64,000 nt of DNA from Elusimicrobiota bacterium. GTDB taxonomy: Bacteria; Elusimicrobiota; Elusimicrobia; F11. The translations under genes were made by a program, and so were the position numbers. This document shows positions 21,608 through 31,171 of the stretch, piece after piece; the stretch's first letter is position 1, and each line of letters starts with the position of its first letter. The stretch is taken from positions 480,001 through 544,000 of the forward strand of contig JBGAON010000001.1 of NCBI GenBank assembly GCA_044221725.1. Direction: 5' to 3'. A model generated the notes under the pieces. The model did no database searches. It worked only from the letters and a program-made list of their open reading frames with translations, and was not told where the DNA came from.

Positions 21608-23068
21608 ATGGAACTCCAAGCACTTTCCGCAACAGAAATTTCTGCCGGCGTCTCGTCAAAAAAGTTTTCCGCCACCGATGTGGTTAATGCCTCGTTGGCG
21701 GCTATCAAAAAGTCCAACGGTGAATTGAACGCGTATTTGAGCGTCGCGGAGTCCGCCGCGCTTGAAGCCGCCAACGCCGTCGACGAGAAAGTGAAATCCG
21801 GGAAGCCCGCCGGCCGTTTGGCGGGCGTGCCGATCGCCATCAAAGACAACATGATGGTGAAAGGCCAGCCAGTTACCTGCGCATCAAAAATTCTTGGAAA
21901 TTACGTGGCACCGTACAACGCGCACGTGATCGAGCGTTTGGTTGCCGAAGGCGCGATCATGATTGGCAAAACAAATTTGGACGAGTTCGCGATGGGATCA
22001 TCAACCGAAAACTCGGCGTTTGGTCCATCGCGCAATCCGTGGGACACCTCCCGCATTCCCGGCGGTTCCTCCGGCGGAAGTGCGGTGGCCGTGGCGACGC
22101 GGACCGTGCCGATCGCGCTTGGAAGTGACACCGGAGGATCGATTCGTCAGCCCGCGTCCTTGTGTGGAATTCTTGGAATGAAACCCACGTACGGCCGGGT
22201 GTCGCGTTACGGCGTGGTTGCATTTGCGTCGTCGCTCGATCAGATTGGACCTTTCACGCATACGCCCGACGATATGGCGCTCACGATGTCAATCATCAGC
22301 GGCAAGGACGAGCGAGATTCAACGTCGGTGGACAAAGCCGTGCCCGATTTTTCTGCAGAGATGAAAAAACCGATTCATGGTTTGCGCGTTGGAATCCCAA
22401 GAGAATATTTCGTCGAAGGAATGGACGCCGACGTAAAGAAAGCCGTTCTCGAAGCGGCCCAAGTTTTAAGGAAGCTCGGCGCCGACGTAAAAGATATTTC
22501 GCTGCCAAACTCCGACCACGCGCTCGCGGTCTATTACATTCTTGCGCCGAGCGAAGCGAGCTCGAACCTCGCGCGCTTCGACGGTATGCGTTACGGATTC
22601 CGAAACCCAAACGCGGCGAATCTTATCGAGCAATACGGGCTTAATCGGCACGATGGTTTTGGTGCGGAGGTGAAGCGCCGCATCATGATCGGAACCTACG
22701 CACTCTCCTCTGGATACTACGATGCGTTCTACGCAAAGGCACAAAAAGTGCGCACGCTCATCAAACGCGATTTCGATCAAGCGTTCGCGAACGTCGACGT
22801 GATTCTTACTCCCGTTTCGCCAACCCCGGCCTTTAAGATTGGCGAGAAATCCGACGATCCGCTCACCATGTATTTGTCGGACATTTGCACAATCCCGTGC
22901 AACCTGGCCGGCATTCCCGGTATCTCAGTTCCGTGCGGTTTTACGAGCGGAAATCTACCGATCGGCGTACAGTTCTACGCAAATCTTTTCCAAGACAGTC
23001 TGCTGCTACAAGTTACGAACGCCTACCTCTGCGAAACCCTCTGGCATAAAAAAGCCCCAAAAAATTAA
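21608..23068 (+). CDS. gatA: Asp/Glu-tRNA amidotransferase subunit A
   Basis: GKTNLDEFAMGSS, PGGSSGGS, GSDTGGSIRQPAS, SSNLARFDG, EVKRRIMIGTY. Confidence 0.97.
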   Translation: MELQALSATEISAGVSSKKFSATDVVNASLAAIKKSNGELNAYLSVAESAALEAANAVDEKVKSGKPAGRLAGVPIAIKDNMMVKGQPVTCASKILGNYVAPYNAHVIERLVAEGAIMIGKTNLDEFAMGSSTENSAFGPSRNPWDTSRIPGGSSGGSAVAVATRTVPIALGSDTGGSIRQPASLCGILGMKPTYGRVSRYGVVAFASSLDQIGPFTHTPDDMALTMSIISGKDERDSTSVDKAVPDFSAEMKKPIHGLRVGIPREYFVEGMDADVKKAVLEAAQVLRKLGADVKDISLPNSDHALAVYYILAPSEASSNLARFDGMRYGFRNPNAANLIEQYGLNRHDGFGAEVKRRIMIGTYALSSGYYDAFYAKAQKVRTLIKRDFDQAFANVDVILTPVSPTPAFKIGEKSDDPLTMYLSDICTIPCNLAGIPGISVPCGFTSGNLPIGVQFYANLFQDSLLLQVTNAYLCETLWHKKAPKN

Positions 23069-23156
23069 TCCGTTCACAACTCCGTTACGTAATTTTAACG
23101 GGAGCTTAATGCCGATTTGATTGAATCTTCGACGATAAACGTCGTCAGGAATTCGA

Positions 23157-26100
23157 TTGAAAAACCGGCTAGCCCCTCAGAAAATCATCGCGCTATTTTT
23201 GTGTACCGTGCTGTTTGCGACGCACGTGGCGTTCGCCCACTTGCCCGAGACGTCTTTGTGGTCCGAACGACGCACCGGGTCGTCGCCCTGGAATGCCGCT
23301 ATTGAGGGCCCACGTTCCGTTGGGACCCTATGTCCTGACGTGAGCCGTTCCCGAATGAATGGTTTGTTCGTGGGCGCGATGGATTTATCGTCGCTCAATC
23401 CCTTTGTTACGGTTCGCAAAGTACTCAAACCCGCCGGCCACTCGAAATCGGTTGTGTTGCACATTCAAGATATTCACGGGAACCAAGAAGCCCAACTCAA
23501 TATCAGCAGAGCGCTCCAGAAACTAAACGAACAGAAAAAGATTGATATGGTCGCGCTCGAAGGTGCCTACCGAATATTTGATTTGTCGGTATTCCGTCAG
23601 TTCCCACGTCCGAACACCATTCGGGCGGTGGCAAATTACCTTTTGCGCGAAAAAAGAATATCCGGGCCCATTCACGCGATGATGACGTCTCCGGTCGTCG
23701 GCGTTTCTGTTATTGGCGTCGATGACGCAAACCACTACGCCGCCAATGTTCAAGCCGTGCGCGATGCGAGTTCACAGAAAGACAATGTTCAGCACGTTCA
23801 ATCCGTGCAACGCATCAAACTTGATTCCGAGAAGCGCAAATTGTTCAACGCGGCACTTTTGGATTTCGATCGCGCCGTCGAAGCGTATCGTTCGGAAAAA
23901 CTGCCGTTCGCCTCGTATGTGAAGTTGTTGGCCACGGGCCGATCGGACGTGTCGCCGGCGGTTCGTGATTATCTTGAGGTTCTGCGCATCGAAGCGAATA
24001 TCAATTTTTCACAAGTCGAAATAGAAAGAGATCTTTTGGTTGCGCAGATTGTTTCTCGGAATCGCGTGATCGCGGAACAGCTTCACAAAATGGCGTTCGC
24101 GTTTCGTGCGCAACAGATCGATCACGAGGCTTTTTATCTTTGGTTGAGAGACGCGGCCCGAAAATCCCACGTTCCAATCGAGAACTTTTTGGTCTTTAAA
24201 GAATATCTGCGCTACGTTCTATTGTCCGATCGCATTGACGTGGAAGCGGTTTTAGCGGAGGCGCGTCAACTCGAGCAACAGAGATTCCGCTGGCTCGTAA
24301 AAACAGCGGATGAACGAAGGTTGGTCGACGCGTCGAAAAGATTGTACTTGGAGTCTAAGCTCGTCGATTTTTCTTTAACCAAAAGAGAGTGGGAAGAGTA
24401 CGAGGAATTAATACCCCACCCTGCCCTCCCCACTGATAAGGCGTGGGGAGGAAAACTTTTTTTCACTAACCCTAAAACCTCGGGGGGGGTGCTCCCTCTC
24501 CATGTCTCCTCAATGGGGAGGGTAGGGTGGGGTATAGACGCTGTAAACCTTTCCCCTTTCGAACAGTTTTATCGGCAAGCGGAGCTCCGTGATGGGGCGA
24601 TGGCGAATAATTTTTTGAACGCCCAACGTTCAATAAACAATCTTCCACGAACAACGAGCGTTCTTATCACTGGCGGTTTTCATTCCTCCGGTATCGATGA
24701 CGCGCTTACAAAGGCAGGTTGCACCGTTGTCTCGATCGTTCCTCGCGTCACAAGCGCGGATGCGTCAAAAGCCTCGGCCTACTTAAGCGTTTTTGCTCAA
24801 GAAAAATCTCCGCTTGAAAAACTTTTTGAGGGACAAAAATTATTTCTCGCCAACGATCCGATGGCGCCTCTGATCCAATTTGTAGAAGCGCCGGTCGAGG
24901 TTGCCCTTTTTGAGGCGGCCAATGCGTTGTCAGCCGGGACCGAGACGATGTTGCCTTTGCCCGCTGATGCAACATTGAAAATTGATCGCGCCGGTGTGGG
25001 CTCGGCTCAGGGGGTGCTGACGCGTGGCGTAAGTGTGGTTCCGGTTGAGCTACGCGCCAACCCAAATGAAATTCTCGAAATGACCGACCGGTCCGTTAGC
25101 CCTTCGGTCGCGCGGCGGGCGATTGGTGGCGTGCGACGATTTTTTCACTGGTTGTTACGGAAATGCGGATTCGTTTATGCCGATGAAAACGCCGAGTGGA
25201 CCTCGAATCTCCATCTCTACGAGGCGGGTCAATTGCTGCTTCAAAGGGGTGCCGTCGGCGATGTAAGAGGTTCTTCAAACAATGTCGGTTTTGTTGGAAT
25301 GATGCCATTCAATCCGTTTGCGGTGTGGTACGAGGAGGCCTCGGAGCGTGCGGAGCAGGGCCATAGAGTGTGGCTTCCGTACGTAATCGCCGCGATGGGC
25401 GGCGTGTTCGAAGAATTGGTGATCCGAAATCTTCTTCAATTCGGAATTCTTGAAGCGTGTTTCGGCATGAGTGCGTGGTGGTCTGCGTTCGTTTACGCAT
25501 CGCTCTTTGCGACGGTTCTGCATTCGAAAATATACACAGCGGAAAGCCCCACGGCCGTTGGTGTAAATTATCTTCTCGGGTGGCAGCGTTGGATTTTGTT
25601 CGCGCTCGCGGTCGGATTGGGTTCGACCGGAGACCTTGAGGTCATCACCTTGGGTCACGCATTTTTTAATCCTCTCATGAGGTACATCGGTGGTCCGCTC
25701 GGCATGATGACAGAGCCGAACAATAAGAAAAGAGCAAAACCGTTTGATCCAGATGCATCAATTCTTTACACGATGCATCTGTTCAACCATTTGGACTCCG
25801 AATATCGAAAGCTCTGGAACGCGCCGGAGCCGGAGATGAAAAATCCGATGTACGCCCGTCCGGGCCAAAGACTTTTTGTGAAAGAAAATCTTTCCGTGGC
25901 CGAACGAACACAAATCGACGATCTTGTCGACACGCTAATGAAAGGTCAGCGCGGAGTGCCGGGTGCGAAACCTTTCCGCTACATGACGACGGCCGAGCAC
26001 CTTTTGATTGGCAAAGCTTTGCGCTCGAATTTGCGGGGGGAAGGCGCTGCAAGCAACAACCTCACCGAACCGCAACGGGAATTTTTGAGAAATTTGCTGG

Positions 26101-29100
26101 TGATGTGGAATATGGCGAATTTCTGGACGTTAACCCGGAAAATTCCCGCGAGGTCACGCAACGAAGTATTTCAAAACGTGCTCCTCTATGTGTTGAGACG
26201 CATTATTTACAAATACGACTATCACAAGGGCCTCAATTTCAATACGTTGGCGGGCTGGGCGGCGACGCAAGAAGTGTCGGTCCATTACCGCGAGAAGCAC
26301 AAACTGGCGGTTACAAAGCGTGTCACCGCCAAAGACCCCGACGCATTTTGGGAAATGCAGCCTGAAAGGGAAAAACGCAGCGATGATGGTCTTATCGAAA
26401 AGTTGCTCAAGGTTTTGGGCCGCCTCTCTCCCAAAGAAGAGAAAGCTCTGCGGTTGCGTTACGGGTTGATGAACACCAAGAAGGGTAAAAGTTTCGCTGA
26501 GCTCGCCGCCACGCTGAACATGACCGTGTGGGCCGTTCAAGATTTCGTTGATGTGGCCTACGCGCATTTGGAACGCGAATTTGCGCGTTTGGAAGATTTC
26601 CGTTTTCGACACACGGATGAAAATATTGTGCGCGATTTATCGCCGCTCGAGCACCGTGTGCTGAAATTGGCCTATCAAAGCCATGCTGTCTTTGACGATG
26701 CGGATATCGCCACTCTCCTCAATTCAAAAATCAGATCCAATCGGCCGAAGCTCACGCCCCTGCAAGTCAAAAAAATTCGAAAACGGGTGGAGTATCGTAT
26801 TCTGCACGGAAGGTTTCCTCCAAATCCTTTCGGCCCACCGCATTCGGTGTTTCACAACATGATGATGTTGCTTGGGGTGCCGTCGTCGCATATGTTGAAG
26901 ATTGTTGCGTTGTTTTCAATTCCACTGGAATCCGGGATCATTTTTCTGGGTTTGTTCGCGTTCGAGCATTCCTTTTGGTTGCAGCTGTTGTACATGATCG
27001 GCGCGGGTGTGCTTGATTTTTGCATCGGATATCTTGGATACAAAACCAGTGGTTCTTCTCTGCCAATAACGAGGCTGTTAATTGCGCATCATTTTTTTGT
27101 GATCGCGATGTATCTCTGTGGTTGGCGATTGTTGGCAAGGTCGGAACACGACGTTCTCATTTTTACCGTGATTGCGTCGATTCACATGCTGATTGATGCG
27201 GTAATTCTTTGGTGGCAGAACATCAGAAACTGGTTTTCGAGCGAGCCACGGCTTACGGATGATCCGGGTACCGCTGAGTTTCATATGGACGCGATGCGCG
27301 ACCGGGATCGCGTCGTCATCAATGGTCTGCCCGACAACCATCCGGTTGTAAGGAACCAGAGGAACTACGAAGGCAAGGAATTCATTTCCGAGCATAGAAT
27401 GAATCAGAACGTGGAATCGTTGCCGGAAGGGGACCTGGAGAAGCAAGAATGGTTGACCGCCAAAATTCCGCTGCAGAAACAAGCGGCAGCACAGTTTAAA
27501 AAGGTAGTGGATGCGATTCCCTCGGTTGTACCGATTGTCTATTCCGAATTGGCTCGAAATTTCAGTGAAGCGCGCGCGACGGAAGCGTTTGCCCGGAAGG
27601 CCGCGGAAATCCAAAAGCGGTTGTTGGAAGATGTGGCGGTCGTGGGTGTTTTCACGGAGCGGCGGCTGATGATTCCGCAGCTTTATCCATCGCGCTACCG
27701 GTTTGGGCGGTTGCGCATGAGCCGTGATCAGAGCGTGCTGTATGTTCCCATGCAGCTGTTTGCGGAAATGCGCTCGCCCGTTGAGATCGAACATTTTGCG
27801 TTTAGTTTTATTTTCGGACTCGAATGGCTGGACAAATACAAACGTGTCAAAGCGGAGGGCAAGGACAGTCGGCGGATCCATCTCGCGATGCACAAGCTCG
27901 AGGAAAGATGGAACGCCAAAGAAAAGAATTTCGTGAACATCCGTTTTCGGCTTCGGCATTTCGTGGACTATCTGAATTATCAATTCGATTATGTCCGTTC
28001 CTATTTCAAGATTGGAGCCGAATTCCGGCAACTCGAAGCGAAATACGCCGATATCACAAAAGAGCTCGAACAGGTGGTGTCGAGGAAAAAATTCCGTACG
28101 GTTGCTCATGGGGGAATGGACATCAATCGTGATTTAACAGCGGTTCGATTCTTCGAAAATCGGTCCACGATCTCCCGGGCTCAAAGTGACGTCGAACGGC
28201 TTGTTGATAAAGCCGAGCTGGTGGGCCTATTCGAAATTGCGCGTAAGATGATCTTGTTCGGCAACTATCTGTACATTTGTGAGACCGGAATTAATCCCGC
28301 TTTGCGAACTGTCCCGAACATTCGTTTGCTCGCACGAACACGAGGATACCGGCAGCTTATTCGCCTGCTGCGCGCTCTGAAGGACCGGCATATTCCGTTC
28401 GAATTGGGACATCGCGGTTGGCTTTCTTTTGTTTTGCCGGGCCCTCGTGACATAACGTACGTGCCAATCGGCTGGGGTGAAGTTGAAATGCTTTTGGCAA
28501 GCACCGAGAAACTTTTGAAATCCATTTTCGAACGTCAAATGGAAATTATTCACAAGCGCAGCAACTACGACATTATTGCGGCGAACTGGGAAATTGTTCA
28601 AGCGGCGCTCAAAGAGGTCCGTGAGATGTGCAAACAAGCCATCGAGGCGCACGATGCGCTTGAGGCGAATTTGCACCGCGTTGCGAATGCGCTTCTATGG
28701 ATCGCGGGTCAACTTAAGCCCAACGAGACGCCGCGAATCAGCGATCTGAAACGTCTTCGGCTGAGCGTGGACAACGTTGCGTTGGATATTCCGCTGAAAG
28801 ATTGGTTTCCGTTTCTTACGGAAAAGGAGTTTGTTTCGGTATTAAGGGACGAAAAAGCGCGCACAAATTTTCGGTTGCCTTCCGAAAAACAGGTCAAAGA
28901 ACTGATCCGCCTGTTTCGCTTTCTTGGTACGCCCAATCTCGAGCTTAAGAACCTGATCGGAGACGTGGTGCTGGTGGTGAAAGACGAGCGCGACGTGCAG
29001 ACCGTGATCGACAACTTCGATGATCTGAACAGCGCACAACTGGATTCTCTGACGATCATTGCACGGAACAAGAAAGTTAAAAATTTATTGGAGCGGCGTT

Positions 29101-30077
29101 TTCTTGAAACCGGGATTCGTGATCAAGAAATTATTCAAGCGGATCCATCTCTTTTCTCAATCCAGAGTCCGAGCCCCGAAGAACGGATTAATATTGCGCT
29201 GGTTCCGAAATATTTTGAAGGCACGCCGGTGAACATTAATCGTATGACGCTCGTGTTTTTCTCCAGTACAAAAATGCGCTTCGCCGAAATTTCCGATAAG
29301 GACGAATTGAACTTCGCACGCATGGCCATGTTTTTTCCTGCTGCCGATTCTGAGCGTTTGGGGCAACGGGATCACGGGCCGTTTTTTAAGGTGATGGAAA
29401 TTTCGCAAGAAAGAGCGCTGCAACAAGTGGTGCAAATCATCAGCAAGCCAAAAACGAAGGAACACCCGCGACTGGGTCTCATGTGGTTCATGCCGTCGAC
29501 GTGGGGGTATGCGATCGCATCGCACGAAGCGAGAGCCGGAAGAATGCCCGTGGCGATTTCCTACGCTTTTGCCGCGTTCGGTGGTCTCATGGAAGAAATT
29601 TTAATTCGGCGAACCGTTCAGACGCTCGTTTTTCATGTTCCTTTTGGAACGCCGGATGTTTTTGTGTTCGCTGTTGTCTACGCGCTTCTTTTTGCGGTTG
29701 TTTTTCATCAATGGGTTGTTGATGAACAAACCGGCCAATTTCGGCGCGCCACCTTCGAGGAAAAGTCTTACTTTTTTCTCTTGGCGCTTACGATTGGGCT
29801 CTTCGGCGGGGCTGCCAGCAGTTTTGAAGCAATGGGATGGCTGCACGCGTTGATTAACGCGCTGATTGCCTCTTCGTCCCCGTCACGCAACACCGAATTA
29901 ACCGGTACGCCACTCAACCTTGGTGTCAAATATATTGACGCACGTCATCCGACGCCGCAGCCGCCGTTCGATCGCGCGCAGCGCGAGAGGGAAATTGCGC
30001 GCCGTGCGTTTGTCCCTGAATCACGCCGATATTTTCAGAATTATCGTCCGCGGCTCGCAGCCCTGCGCTCAAGCTAA
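23157..30077 (+). CDS. Giant 2306-aa multi-domain membrane protein: signal peptide, Tiki/TraB/ChaN-like domain, CPBP-like modules, sigma-70-like domain, unknown helical region
   Basis: Uninterrupted ORF; motifs QDIH/LEG/RDGAM/GGFH; EELVIR-FATVLH-HAFFN and EEILIR-FAVVFH-HALIN; KYDYHKGLNFNTLAGW and LSPKEEKALRLRYGL. Confidence 0.85.
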   Translation: MKNRLAPQKIIALFLCTVLFATHVAFAHLPETSLWSERRTGSSPWNAAIEGPRSVGTLCPDVSRSRMNGLFVGAMDLSSLNPFVTVRKVLKPAGHSKSVVLHIQDIHGNQEAQLNISRALQKLNEQKKIDMVALEGAYRIFDLSVFRQFPRPNTIRAVANYLLREKRISGPIHAMMTSPVVGVSVIGVDDANHYAANVQAVRDASSQKDNVQHVQSVQRIKLDSEKRKLFNAALLDFDRAVEAYRSEKLPFASYVKLLATGRSDVSPAVRDYLEVLRIEANINFSQVEIERDLLVAQIVSRNRVIAEQLHKMAFAFRAQQIDHEAFYLWLRDAARKSHVPIENFLVFKEYLRYVLLSDRIDVEAVLAEARQLEQQRFRWLVKTADERRLVDASKRLYLESKLVDFSLTKREWEEYEELIPHPALPTDKAWGGKLFFTNPKTSGGVLPLHVSSMGRVGWGIDAVNLSPFEQFYRQAELRDGAMANNFLNAQRSINNLPRTTSVLITGGFHSSGIDDALTKAGCTVVSIVPRVTSADASKASAYLSVFAQEKSPLEKLFEGQKLFLANDPMAPLIQFVEAPVEVALFEAANALSAGTETMLPLPADATLKIDRAGVGSAQGVLTRGVSVVPVELRANPNEILEMTDRSVSPSVARRAIGGVRRFFHWLLRKCGFVYADENAEWTSNLHLYEAGQLLLQRGAVGDVRGSSNNVGFVGMMPFNPFAVWYEEASERAEQGHRVWLPYVIAAMGGVFEELVIRNLLQFGILEACFGMSAWWSAFVYASLFATVLHSKIYTAESPTAVGVNYLLGWQRWILFALAVGLGSTGDLEVITLGHAFFNPLMRYIGGPLGMMTEPNNKKRAKPFDPDASILYTMHLFNHLDSEYRKLWNAPEPEMKNPMYARPGQRLFVKENLSVAERTQIDDLVDTLMKGQRGVPGAKPFRYMTTAEHLLIGKALRSNLRGEGAASNNLTEPQREFLRNLLVMWNMANFWTLTRKIPARSRNEVFQNVLLYVLRRIIYKYDYHKGLNFNTLAGWAATQEVSVHYREKHKLAVTKRVTAKDPDAFWEMQPEREKRSDDGLIEKLLKVLGRLSPKEEKALRLRYGLMNTKKGKSFAELAATLNMTVWAVQDFVDVAYAHLEREFARLEDFRFRHTDENIVRDLSPLEHRVLKLAYQSHAVFDDADIATLLNSKIRSNRPKLTPLQVKKIRKRVEYRILHGRFPPNPFGPPHSVFHNMMMLLGVPSSHMLKIVALFSIPLESGIIFLGLFAFEHSFWLQLLYMIGAGVLDFCIGYLGYKTSGSSLPITRLLIAHHFFVIAMYLCGWRLLARSEHDVLIFTVIASIHMLIDAVILWWQNIRNWFSSEPRLTDDPGTAEFHMDAMRDRDRVVINGLPDNHPVVRNQRNYEGKEFISEHRMNQNVESLPEGDLEKQEWLTAKIPLQKQAAAQFKKVVDAIPSVVPIVYSELARNFSEARATEAFARKAAEIQKRLLEDVAVVGVFTERRLMIPQLYPSRYRFGRLRMSRDQSVLYVPMQLFAEMRSPVEIEHFAFSFIFGLEWLDKYKRVKAEGKDSRRIHLAMHKLEERWNAKEKNFVNIRFRLRHFVDYLNYQFDYVRSYFKIGAEFRQLEAKYADITKELEQVVSRKKFRTVAHGGMDINRDLTAVRFFENRSTISRAQSDVERLVDKAELVGLFEIARKMILFGNYLYICETGINPALRTVPNIRLLARTRGYRQLIRLLRALKDRHIPFELGHRGWLSFVLPGPRDITYVPIGWGEVEMLLASTEKLLKSIFERQMEIIHKRSNYDIIAANWEIVQAALKEVREMCKQAIEAHDALEANLHRVANALLWIAGQLKPNETPRISDLKRLRLSVDNVALDIPLKDWFPFLTEKEFVSVLRDEKARTNFRLPSEKQVKELIRLFRFLGTPNLELKNLIGDVVLVVKDERDVQTVIDNFDDLNSAQLDSLTIIARNKKVKNLLERRFLETGIRDQEIIQADPSLFSIQSPSPEERINIALVPKYFEGTPVNINRMTLVFFSSTKMRFAEISDKDELNFARMAMFFPAADSERLGQRDHGPFFKVMEISQERALQQVVQIISKPKTKEHPRLGLMWFMPSTWGYAIASHEARAGRMPVAISYAFAAFGGLMEEILIRRTVQTLVFHVPFGTPDVFVFAVVYALLFAVVFHQWVVDEQTGQFRRATFEEKSYFFLLALTIGLFGGAASSFEAMGWLHALINALIASSSPSRNTELTGTPLNLGVKYIDARHPTPQPPFDRAQREREIARRAFVPESRRYFQNYRPRLAALRSS
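24411..24535. repeat. Palindromic element (family B) in frame in the giant gene
   Basis: ATACCCCACCCTGCCCTCCCCA...TGGGGAGGGTAGGGTGGGGTAT; 22-bp inverted repeat with one mismatch; translates as IPHPALP...MGRVGWGI. Confidence 0.88.
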
Positions 30078-30136
30078 ATCGGGCCAATTTTCATCCGCCT
30101 CTGGCGATCGTGTGCAATTCAGCGCATCATTGATTC

Positions 30137-31171
30137 ATGAATTGCCCGTCCTGTCAGTTCAACAACGTCGACGACGTCCGCTATTGTGGCCATTGCCGCA
30201 TGAGTTTCTCGTCACTCAATATTGCGTTCTCCCATGTGAAAGGTCATCTCGCTTGGATTTTTCGCCGCGCGAACGCCGGTTTTCTTTCGGGGATGGTGGC
30301 CTGGTTTTTTATTCCGGCGCTCAGTCGTGTGATCTCAAAGGAGGCAACGACCGCACTTCACTTCGGGATACAAGGTCTGCTCGGCGGTGCGTTTTTTGGA
30401 ACCGTGGACGGAATGGTGGAGGAATCCTCGCCAAAAACATTTCGGGGGGGACTTTTGGGCGCGGTTGGGGGCGCCATCGGTGGAATTGTGTTTGGTTACT
30501 ACAGTCCGCGCATGACGCCCGAACAAACCGGCTGGGGACTTTTTGCGTTCTGGGCCACGGCGGGCCTGGCCATTGGAATGGTAAGCGCTTTGTGGGAACG
30601 AAGTTTCAAAAAGATTTCCGCGGGCGCTTTGAGCGGGCTCGTGGGCGGTGGCGTGGGCGGTGCGCTCGGATACGCCGTGTACGCGTATCTGATTCAAGAA
30701 TTTAATCCGGAAGGCTGGCTGATTCGCCGACTTTGTGAAGGTTTTTCGGGCGGAATCATCGGCGTCACCATGTGGTTCTCGATTGCTGTGGCCGAGCGTT
30801 TTGTGATTTTCAAACGGCGCATTATCGAAGGAAAAAGCCACAAGCATTGCGATCACTGCGAGGCGCAGAACCCGCTCAATACGTGGTACTGCGGAAAATG
30901 TGGCAGCGTGCTGCAGCAATCGGCGCCGCCCGCGGCGCTCAACCTTTCACCGTTTCAAACGTTGGACCGCCTGCGTGGATTTTTCCGTTTCATGACCCGG
31001 CTTGCCGCAACGACAAGCGTCATCGCGGGGCTGGTCGTGTTCGTGGTCTTCCTGCCGGTCAACAAGATGCTCGCGTTTGTGGCGCTTGTTTTGGTCGTAA
31101 TGGCTTGCTTCTCGCTGTTGTTAACCTTCTCAGCGATCGCGGAAGGGATTCAGATATACATTAAGAAATAG
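30137..31171 (+). CDS. Gly-rich multi-pass membrane protein with two zinc ribbons
   Basis: N-terminal CPSC..N...YCGHC, internal CDHC..N...YCGKCG, Gly-rich TM helices between them. Confidence 0.8.
   Translation: MNCPSCQFNNVDDVRYCGHCRMSFSSLNIAFSHVKGHLAWIFRRANAGFLSGMVAWFFIPALSRVISKEATTALHFGIQGLLGGAFFGTVDGMVEESSPKTFRGGLLGAVGGAIGGIVFGYYSPRMTPEQTGWGLFAFWATAGLAIGMVSALWERSFKKISAGALSGLVGGGVGGALGYAVYAYLIQEFNPEGWLIRRLCEGFSGGIIGVTMWFSIAVAERFVIFKRRIIEGKSHKHCDHCEAQNPLNTWYCGKCGSVLQQSAPPAALNLSPFQTLDRLRGFFRFMTRLAATTSVIAGLVVFVVFLPVNKMLAFVALVLVVMACFSLLLTFSAIAEGIQIYIKK

Follow-up and report, generated by a model that had tools for sequence, protein, structure and literature searches.

A diverged sigma-70-type module between the membrane blocks of a giant protein from an Elusimicrobiota bacterium

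Sigma factors can be controlled by intramembrane proteases through cleavage, as in the pair pro-sigma-K/SpoIVFB. In the PrsW/RsiW/SigW system of Bacillus subtilis, PrsW, an Rce1-like protease, serves as site-1 protease of an anti-sigma factor, according to the part of PMC9263693 that deals with this system. Moreover, sigma factors may be fused covalently to transmembrane segments. Among the extracytoplasmic function (ECF) sigma factors such fusions comprise IutY (ECF243), SCO4117 (ECF52), ECF48/53 and ECF36, the latter with an N-terminal extension of 3-4 membrane helices, and for membrane-bound fusions, e.g. IutY, activation by regulated proteolysis has been proposed or shown, as stated in the relevant sections of PMC8999054. 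Finally, giant proteins of Omnitrophota and related phyla are described, in parts of two preprints, as carrying a signal peptide and transmembrane segments, with enzyme-like modules that alternate with membrane helices; self-cleavage has been suggested for them, and their topology poses a puzzle (bioRxiv 10.1101/2023.11.21.568195, 10.64898/2026.06.07.730766).

Here we analysed a stretch of 64,000 nucleotides (the window; GenBank assembly GCA_044221725.1, contig JBGAON010000001.1, positions 480,001 to 544,000, forward strand) from an uncultured Elusimicrobiota bacterium and, within it, an open reading frame (ORF) at 23157..30077 on the forward strand that encodes a protein of 2306 amino acids (aa). 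We find that aa ~938-1149 constitute a genuine, although very diverged, module of the sigma-70 family, which consists of a helix resembling region 1.2, a sigma2 domain and a sigma4 domain and which lacks region 3. The module is not a free soluble subunit, i.e. it is an internal part of the 2306-aa chain and lies between membrane blocks. The original prediction for this DNA had placed a sigma-70-type region 2 and region 4 inside a giant membrane protein, in a soluble block between two transmembrane bundles. Both parts of this claim hold, the former on the basis of a profile score above cut-off, of searches in the PDB and among 1.84 billion representatives and of fold superpositions, the latter on the basis of the position of sigma2 and sigma4 between two membrane blocks. 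The best reading, to which we assign a probability of roughly 40%, is that the module is tethered at the membrane's cytoplasmic side and is freed by proteolysis.

Sequence and fold of the sigma module

The NCBIfam model TIGR02937 matches aa 859-1220 with 44.6 bits, above its cut-off of 42.9, and covers profile positions 15-160 of 165; 23 further NCBIfam sigma models match the same block more weakly. In a six-frame scan of the genome the module again exceeds the TIGR02937 cut-off (45 bits). A sequence search of the PDB gave 17 matches at E<=1, 16 of which are sigma factors, the remaining one being a transposase, and region 2.2-2.3 is followed by region 4 in the correct order. An exhaustive search of the 1.84 billion representatives with aa 860-1400 retrieved the query itself and four weak matches (E 5e-6 to 5e-4), all of which carry both Pfam r2 and r4, and a word-index search for close homologues of the sigma block returned the protein itself only. 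Additionally, profiles for region 4 and region 2 that were built without this sequence score 24.5 bits on aa 1079-1149 and 14.4 bits on the sigma2 domain, respectively.

The sigma2 domain and the preceding region-1.2-like helix extend over 25968..26333 (forward strand, aa 938-1059), contain KYDYHKGLNFNTLAGWAATQEV and are recognized by TIGR02937, PDB alignments, an AlphaFold2 (AF2) model and superposition. The sigma4 helix-turn-helix domain occupies 26391..26603 (forward strand, aa 1079-1149) and is recognized by Pfam Sigma70_r4, our region 4 profile, the AF2 model and superposition. The landmarks of the original prediction are placed exactly, with K1019 of KYDY at 26211, L1090 of LSPKEE at 26424 and L1161 of LSPLEH at 26637. 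Only ~20 residues, modelled with low confidence, separate sigma2 from sigma4, and the alignments bear out the predicted absence of region 3. The predicted likeness to region 1.2 finds no match in Pfam and is backed only by the fold model.

For this model we used an alignment (A1) of 24 rows, comprising the block itself, 11 embedded modules of relatives, the four matches among the representatives and eight free sigma factors of this genome. The mean pLDDT of AF2 with A1 was 69.7; it rose to 83-91 in aa 969-1059 and to 88-97 in aa 1079-1149. These values have to be read in light of an input of sigma factors, which biases the model to the sigma fold. Foldseek reported 42 matches at E<=1e-3, and the 50 rows listed are sigma factors of RNA polymerase complexes and two integrative models (one of them SigA-RpoC). 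Sigma4 superposes on region 4 of SigA (VIA Z 10.8, rmsd 2.2 Å, 69 residues), and the 1.2-like helix together with sigma2 superposes on a region 1.2+2 fragment of RpoS (VIA Z 10.4, rmsd 2.3 Å, 94 residues). Modelling of the isolated fragment, as proposed in the original prediction, thus yields confident sigma2 and sigma4 domains that match solved sigma structures.

A second copy of region 4, also proposed for this block, could not be corroborated. The segment concerned (26631..26813, forward strand, aa 1159-1219) is modelled by AF2 as three helices with a pLDDT of 61-78. With aa 1150-1225 alone, no match was obtained in Pfam, by BLASTP against the first region 4 or by phmmer against 12 sigma-bearing giants, our region 4 profile aligned 15 residues at -3.4 bits, and the fold searches barely covered this segment. 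It may be a degenerate sigma4-like repeat, an idea that becomes more plausible because multiple region 4 copies occur, if only in relatives, in G007:C71 (five) and G009:C212 (six).

The ORF starts with TTG, preceded by AGGA 8-12 nt upstream, and includes its stop codon. Its stretch 24900-27600 is present in 20 of the 22 listed runs, which stem from eight studies. When contigs of four runs (two DNA, two RNA-library) were aligned to 22900-30300 and counted in 30 bins, the independent DNA-run contigs, from two studies, covered 25 and 26 bins and the RNA-library contigs 19 and 24. The contig pieces that match the ORF are short (151-571 nt for the 32 displayed), and 64 of 70 are at least 99% identical. 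Independent contigs bridge the junction between the sigma module and the membrane domain before it (CPBP1, see below) at 25661-25894 and 25788-25938, and a further one bridges the junction to the second membrane block at 26834-26984; the junction-bridging contigs from other studies and RNA libraries differ by 0 to 5 letters.

These data bear on the explanation that the arrangement is an assembly chimera, as had been envisaged in the original prediction, or that the similarity to sigma factors arises by chance. The whole gene is spanned by no single independent contig, one RNA contig has a loose end of 57 letters at 26880, and another contig contains an opposite-strand joint at 24433/24514, all of which would fit a chimera. 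However, the gene is tiled by short contigs that stem from RNA libraries and two other DNA studies and that reach across both sigma junctions, the architecture is seen again in other genomes, and profile and fold evidence agree on the sigma module, so that this explanation is hardly credible. As far as the contigs can tell, the gene is not an assembly artefact, and we regard the ORF as a real gene that looks expressed and encodes a polytopic membrane protein; the RNA-library contigs fall short of proving its transcription.

Membrane surroundings and topology

The membrane domain that precedes the sigma module is a CPBP/Rce1-like, i.e. intramembrane protease-like, domain (CPBP1; 25287..25694, forward strand, aa 711-846) with four membrane helices and the motifs EELVIR, FATVLH and HAFFN. 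A second domain of this type is found near the C-terminus (29472..29876, forward strand, aa 2106-2240; EEILIR, FAVVFH, HALIN) and is 31.6% identical to the first over 133 aligned residues. Pfam Rce1-like (PF02517) matches CPBP1 with 18.3 bits (E 0.003, profile positions 5-91 of 93). An alignment of ten CPBP-like sequences, which stem from giants in seven genomes, has invariant G, E, R, A, F and H columns. All ten retain the first Glu and the Arg of the EExxxR motif as well as Phe and His in FxxxH, and of the eight rows that extend to HxxxN seven retain it. The Pfam model matches half of these sequences (5/10) at E<=1, with a best value of 1e-5. In this genome the only Rce1-like matches are the two in this ORF, and a single S2P-type protease is encoded elsewhere.

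An AF2 model of CPBP1 (pLDDT 75.1, pTM 0.68) shows a short charged helix and then four long helices. Compared with 48,161 chains, its top three matches, with middling Z values for the model, are SagB-SpdC (6u0o_A; Z 7.3, 2.5 Å, 102 residues), Rce1 (4cad_C; Z 6.3) and gamma-secretase with APH-1 (8oqz_C; Z 5.9); SpdC, Rce1 and APH-1 we take to belong to one superfamily (CPBP/Rce1). Foldseek found nothing at E<=1e-3 for this model in the PDB, and a CPBP profile (alignment A2) had no match among PDB sequences.

Behind the sigma module lies the second membrane block (26847..27224, forward strand, aa ~1231-1356), which has about four helices by hydropathy, belongs to no known family and has a homologue in the giant G003:C112 (aa 545-709, E 6.5e-22). 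The linkers between the module and the two membrane blocks comprise ~90 (aa 847-937) and ~85 residues (aa 1150-1234). A soluble mid region follows (27354..29426, forward strand, aa 1400-2090), for which Pfam, NCBIfam and Atlas gave no match and a homologue search returned the query only; segments homologous to its first half occur in giants of the genomes G003, G004 and G001. The chain ends, after the second CPBP-like domain, with an arginine-rich tail (29877..30074, forward strand) with 12 Lys/Arg (K/R) in aa 2245-2306. At the other end, aa 1-28 (23157..23240, forward strand) resemble a signal peptide, with three K/R, a hydrophobic core (hydropathy peak 2.06 at aa 10-28) and AFA before H, and judged by sequence this segment would be a Sec signal. 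A gene 60 nt downstream of the ORF (30137-31171, forward strand) encodes 344 aa with two zinc-ribbon motifs (Pfam DZR, E 2.7e-6) and glycine-rich membrane segments and may be co-transcribed with the giant ORF.

On which side of the membrane the sigma module resides is a question on which two lines of evidence diverge. Four K/R are found right behind CPBP1, seven directly ahead of the second block and 12 within the tail, as compared to none in the short loops a/b and c/d, and this pattern suggests that the flanks of the sigma module are cytoplasmic. Kinase, receiver and phosphatase domains depend on cytoplasmic cofactors such as ATP, and their presence as companion modules in paralogous and related giants suggests signalling inside the cell. 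Conversely, the head behind the N-terminus would be exported via the signal-like segment, no clear membrane helix is seen between head and CPBP1 (best hydropathy 1.17), and CPBP1 is modelled with four helices, an even number, so that by parity the sigma module would be outside. A conserved membrane helix right behind the head, which would fix the parity, was sought and rejected, as none is conserved in the alignment and the same best hydropathy of 1.17 applies.

The original prediction had gone further and proposed an exported polyprotein with a sigma-like cargo that would act on the cell's own RNA polymerase or on that of another cell, or as a decoy. In this reading the chain past the signal peptide is exported, and the cargo would be released outside or into another cell and there act on a foreign RNA polymerase or serve as decoy. 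The signal-peptide-like N-terminus fits this proposal, as do the seemingly even helix numbers of all three membrane blocks, which would leave everything on the side of the head, and topology predictions for Omnitrophota giants, which in the parts of the preprints that present them place much of the cargo outside (bioRxiv 10.64898/2026.06.07.730766, 10.1101/2023.11.21.568195). Yet the distribution of K/R is the reverse of what export would demand, with none in the would-be cytoplasmic loops as compared to 4, 7 and 12 in the would-be outside flanks, and the companion modules of relatives would be cut off from their cofactors. Furthermore, no genes for secretion or injection adjoin the ORF. Its neighbours in the window, a chromosomal stretch, are housekeeping genes, i.e. 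dnaE, accA, pfk and a gene for a UvrD-type helicase, with an amidase gene directly upstream and uppP, moxR and mutS downstream. The claims of an exported polyprotein and of an effector on another cell's polymerase thus found no positive support, the exported-effector reading is weakly supported, and we consider it very unlikely.

In the preferred reading, release at the cytoplasmic face, the module would be inactive as long as the membrane holds it by both of its ends, and cuts in the juxtamembrane linkers would release it. The CPBP domains of the same chain would be the first candidate for the cutting enzyme and the single S2P protease of the cell the second, and the freed module would bind the core RNA polymerase of its own cell. 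Release by proteolysis, already part of the original prediction, is plausible because protease-like CPBP domains flank the sigma region. From the observed anatomy we infer the membrane side, the cleavage, the binding of RNA polymerase and a promoter target. Besides the helix parity and the published topologies, further points weigh against this reading. The sigma module is the most diverged of the set, and its region 2.3 is altered (see below). The scores for Pfam Rce1-like (18.3, 18.8 and, for domain 2, 19.8 bits) all stay below the cut-off of 22.4, as the Pfam Sigma70_r4 score stays below its own. Moreover, the link between CPBP domains and sigma modules is not general, because other sigma giants use a different membrane block, which is unrelated by profile comparison (0.24%).

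Related giants, their head and their promoter

A search for homologous giants with sigma cargo had been suggested along with the prediction, and it was successful. For 16 genomes with full tables we counted TIGR02937 matches inside frames of at least 1000 aa and found them in ten, i.e. G000, G001, G003, G004 (weak), G005, G006 (weak), G007, G009, G010 and G037, with scores above cut-off in eight of these ten. The six others (G002, G008, G014, G020, G028, G035) had no TIGR02937 match in frames of this length. Sigma modules are thus a recurrent cargo of giant proteins. G007:C31, named 'sigma-70 family RNA polymerase sigma factor' by NCBI, contains three complete sigma modules, G001:C10 two together with a receiver domain, G007:C71 r2, r3 and the five r4 copies, and G003:C205 a sigma module and a phosphatase-like domain. 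Eleven other sigma-bearing frames were fetched, seven of which have the head described below and one only the end of it, the remaining three being cut by contig ends. Three proteins, the present one, G003:C112 and G007:C71, have a CPBP-like domain directly before their sigma module, and G007:C71 has another directly after it.

The closest relative, G003:C112 (L025:1-5919:-), comes from the same genus, has a near-identical signal peptide and a head that is 42% identical, and the order of its modules differs (head, second block, mid region, CPBP, sigma). Modules seem to be shuffled within one lineage, because the same modules occur here in another order. In the present genome (G000) a paralogue (C5:197498-203410; L028:499-6411:+) of 1971 aa contains a better-kept sigma module (68.8 bits; Pfam r2 820-886, r4 921-971), behind which lie a membrane block and then a Ser/Thr protein kinase domain (1233-1481).

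Further observations concern the architecture of these giants. A conserved membrane block of ~150 residues, which could be assigned to no known family, takes turns with complete sigma modules in L030:2198-9610:- (G007:C31) and L029:4717-12048:- (G001:C10). Two Glu and two His are among the invariant residues of this block, of which one protein has four copies. A CPBP-like identity of the membrane blocks between sigma modules in G007:C31, G001:C10 and the C5 paralogue was considered and rejected (hhalign probability 0.24%, no iterated-profile match, no Pfam family), and an 'NPF' motif was rejected as module junction, as it is not general. Repeats of region 4 only are found in a frame of 1158 aa (G009:C212:310-1680, six copies) and in one of 294 aa (G002:C5:221364-222122, three copies). 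In L032:3-6206:+ (G003:C122; at least 2068 aa) a sigma-like region 4/GerE helix-turn-helix (aa 697-761) is combined with a SecA DEAD-like domain (aa 877-1285), a domain type reported to be common in Omnitrophota giants. Genome G006 has a frame of 12,118 aa twice on one contig (C49:72822-73274, 111525-111977), in opposite orientation and with identical scores, which may be a duplication or an assembly mirror, the genome being 14% contaminated. A locus search with a smaller alignment (A4) gave four loci, including one new giant (L060) without a sigma match to our own profiles in 8.4 kb.

A tree built from 24 rows places the 12 embedded modules, without exception, on the side of RpoD, a group-3-like sigma and P0003-P0006 and splits them from the six ECF sigma factors of the genome with 100/100 support, a result that has to be read with long branches and a small sample in mind. 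The branch of the present module measures 2.0 changes per column, as compared to a median of 0.92, its placement is unresolved, and it is only 12-26% identical to the other modules. Divergence of this extent raises the question of whether the module, through decay or repurposing, has become a sigma-derived domain without a role in directing transcription, which may act as scaffold, as docking site for a partner or as decoy, the latter keeping core polymerase, or a partner similar to an anti-sigma factor, at the membrane. Among the embedded modules only G001:C31 has a longer branch (2.66), and region 3 has been lost here even though it is retained by the modules of the closest relatives (G003:C112, G007:C71 and G007:C15). 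No close homologue exists among the 1.84 billion representatives, and the profile scores are just at or below their thresholds. TIGR02937 exceeds its cut-off on aa 859-1220, whereas on the whole 2306-aa protein it falls to 38.2 bits, and Pfam gives 22.3 bits for Sigma70_r4 (cut-off 24.1) and 15.2 bits for Sigma70_r4_2. Sigma70_r2 is absent among the listed Pfam matches of the ORF, and region 1.2 has none.

The same doubt arises from region 2.3, the aromatic residues of which open the -10 element. In the alignment with SigA, ...nfntlagwaatqev of the module stands under ...kfstyatwwirqai of the SigA chains, i.e. a tyrosine is replaced by leucine and the second tryptophan by alanine, the latter being the change from WW to WA that had been predicted. 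Because two aromatic positions of region 2.3 are changed, the module may no longer act as a sigma factor. However, both domains are modelled confidently, the frame is intact and at least 99% identical in DNA and RNA libraries of other studies, and the better-kept modules found among paralogues and relatives speak for a function of the class as such. Taken together, we regard decay or repurposing as somewhat unlikely.

The head that is common to this family (23241..24866, forward strand, aa ~29-570) recurs in 25 other ORFs of this genome (blastp at E<=1e-3 among 13,683 frames, with E down to 7e-82), a genome of 2.82 Mb in 5 contigs that is 93.9% complete and whose longest open frames reach 18,016 codons. 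It was also matched in 22 of 41 related genomes, including all genomes searched in three families (11/11, 4/4 and 3/3). The heads of three relatives weakly match Pfam PF04187 (E ~2e-4), and the head of the present ORF has no Pfam match. A promoter of the giant-gene class precedes the ORF (23073..23126, forward strand), with the four boxes TTCAC at 23073, GTTAC at 23084, TTTAA at 23094 and CTTAA at 23105 and a -10-like TTGAAT at 23121-23126. The consensus consists of two TTTAC-like and two CTTAA-like boxes at offsets 0, 11, 21 and 32 and a TAnAAT-like hexamer at a fixed distance, 11 nt past the last box. In a fixed-register scan 27 sites of the genome reach at least 17 of 20 box letters, as compared to none in the reversed genome; the site upstream of this ORF scores 17/20 and that of the other sigma-bearing paralogue 19/20. 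As read from the coordinates, 21 of the 27 sites lie directly before head-bearing ORFs, this gene included. Other four-box sites precede giants that lack this head (C5:215636, C5:256646). Thus, the ORF belongs to a large 'Tiki-headed' family of giant Elusimicrobiota proteins, characterized by a Tiki-like head and a four-box promoter.

A promoter type common to this gene and 20 other head-bearing genes would also suit a module that works while still tethered, bringing RNA polymerase and certain promoters to the membrane and perhaps coupling transcription of giant genes to insertion of their products. Membrane-integrated regulators such as ToxR and CadC provide a model for this mode of action, linkers of ~90 and ~85 residues set the module apart from the membrane blocks, and the chains of several sigma modules that other giants carry between such blocks would require many cuts for release. 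On the other hand, we know of no precedent for a sigma factor that is active with both ends anchored. In G007:C71 and G007:C31, moreover, only ~15-20 residues lie between the end of sigma4 and the next membrane block, where the polymerase would be crowded. Work in the tethered state therefore appears unlikely to us. A more far-reaching extension of proteolytic release is that embedded sigma modules are dedicated regulators of a giant-gene regulon, in which the exported head would sense a signal, the protease-like domains of the chain would cut, and the modules thus freed, which in some cases have as many as five or six sigma4 copies, would recognize the evenly spaced four boxes of the common promoter. 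We consider this distinctly doubtful; if it were true, the giant membrane proteins as a set would turn on their own expression from the membrane.

Comparison with known systems

Sigma factors are textbook examples of small, free and exchangeable subunits, whereas here they occur as serial internal modules of giant membrane proteins, beside protease-like domains, kinases and receivers. This offers a testable handle on the role of the enigmatic giant proteins of Elusimicrobiota and Omnitrophota and on whether their cargo is inside or outside the cell, because a sigma module is useful only where RNA polymerase exists. A full-text search (Omnitrophota, giant and 'sigma factor'; 'membrane-tethered sigma factor') found no paper that describes such modules within giant membrane proteins. 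Neither of the two preprints on giant proteins uses 'sigma' or 'transcription' in its main text; their supplements may list such domains. Like the Omnitrophota-type giants, as far as these preprints describe them, the present protein is a very long chain in which modules alternate with membrane helices; unlike them, its family is defined by a common head domain and a common promoter.

With the ECF fusions, as portrayed in the sections cited above, the protein shares a sigma2 and a sigma4 domain covalently joined to membrane helices, and the proteolysis that frees the cytoplasmic sigma part there is proposed here. Those fusions, however, are tethered at one end, comprise a few hundred residues and usually contain an anti-sigma-like domain, whereas here a chain of 2306 aa with an exported-looking head holds the module in its interior, with an anchor on either side. 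No anti-sigma family was found for this protein in Pfam or NCBIfam at E<=10, a search that would miss a diverged one. Moreover, the module groups with RpoD and group-3-type sigma factors, away from six ECF sigma factors (100/100), and its candidate protease, unlike that of the ECF fusions, is part of the same chain.

A similar picture emerges from the comparison with PrsW/RsiW/SigW and pro-sigma-K/SpoIVFB, with which the present system would share the control of a sigma factor through cleavage by a membrane-embedded protease at the membrane. There, protease, anti-sigma and sigma factor are separate proteins, and what is cut is the anti-sigma factor or a short pro-sequence, whereas here the sigma module and two CPBP-like domains form one polypeptide and the cleavage is putative. 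If release by the in-chain CPBP domains were true, the protein would be a one-polypeptide version of the relay of sigma factor, anti-sigma factor and protease. Taken together, membrane-bound sigma fusions that are freed by proteolysis and an Rce1-like protease acting on an anti-sigma factor are already known; what is different here is an internal module anchored at both ends, of a non-ECF sigma type and with protease-like domains in the same chain, in a giant host whose relatives carry such modules in series.

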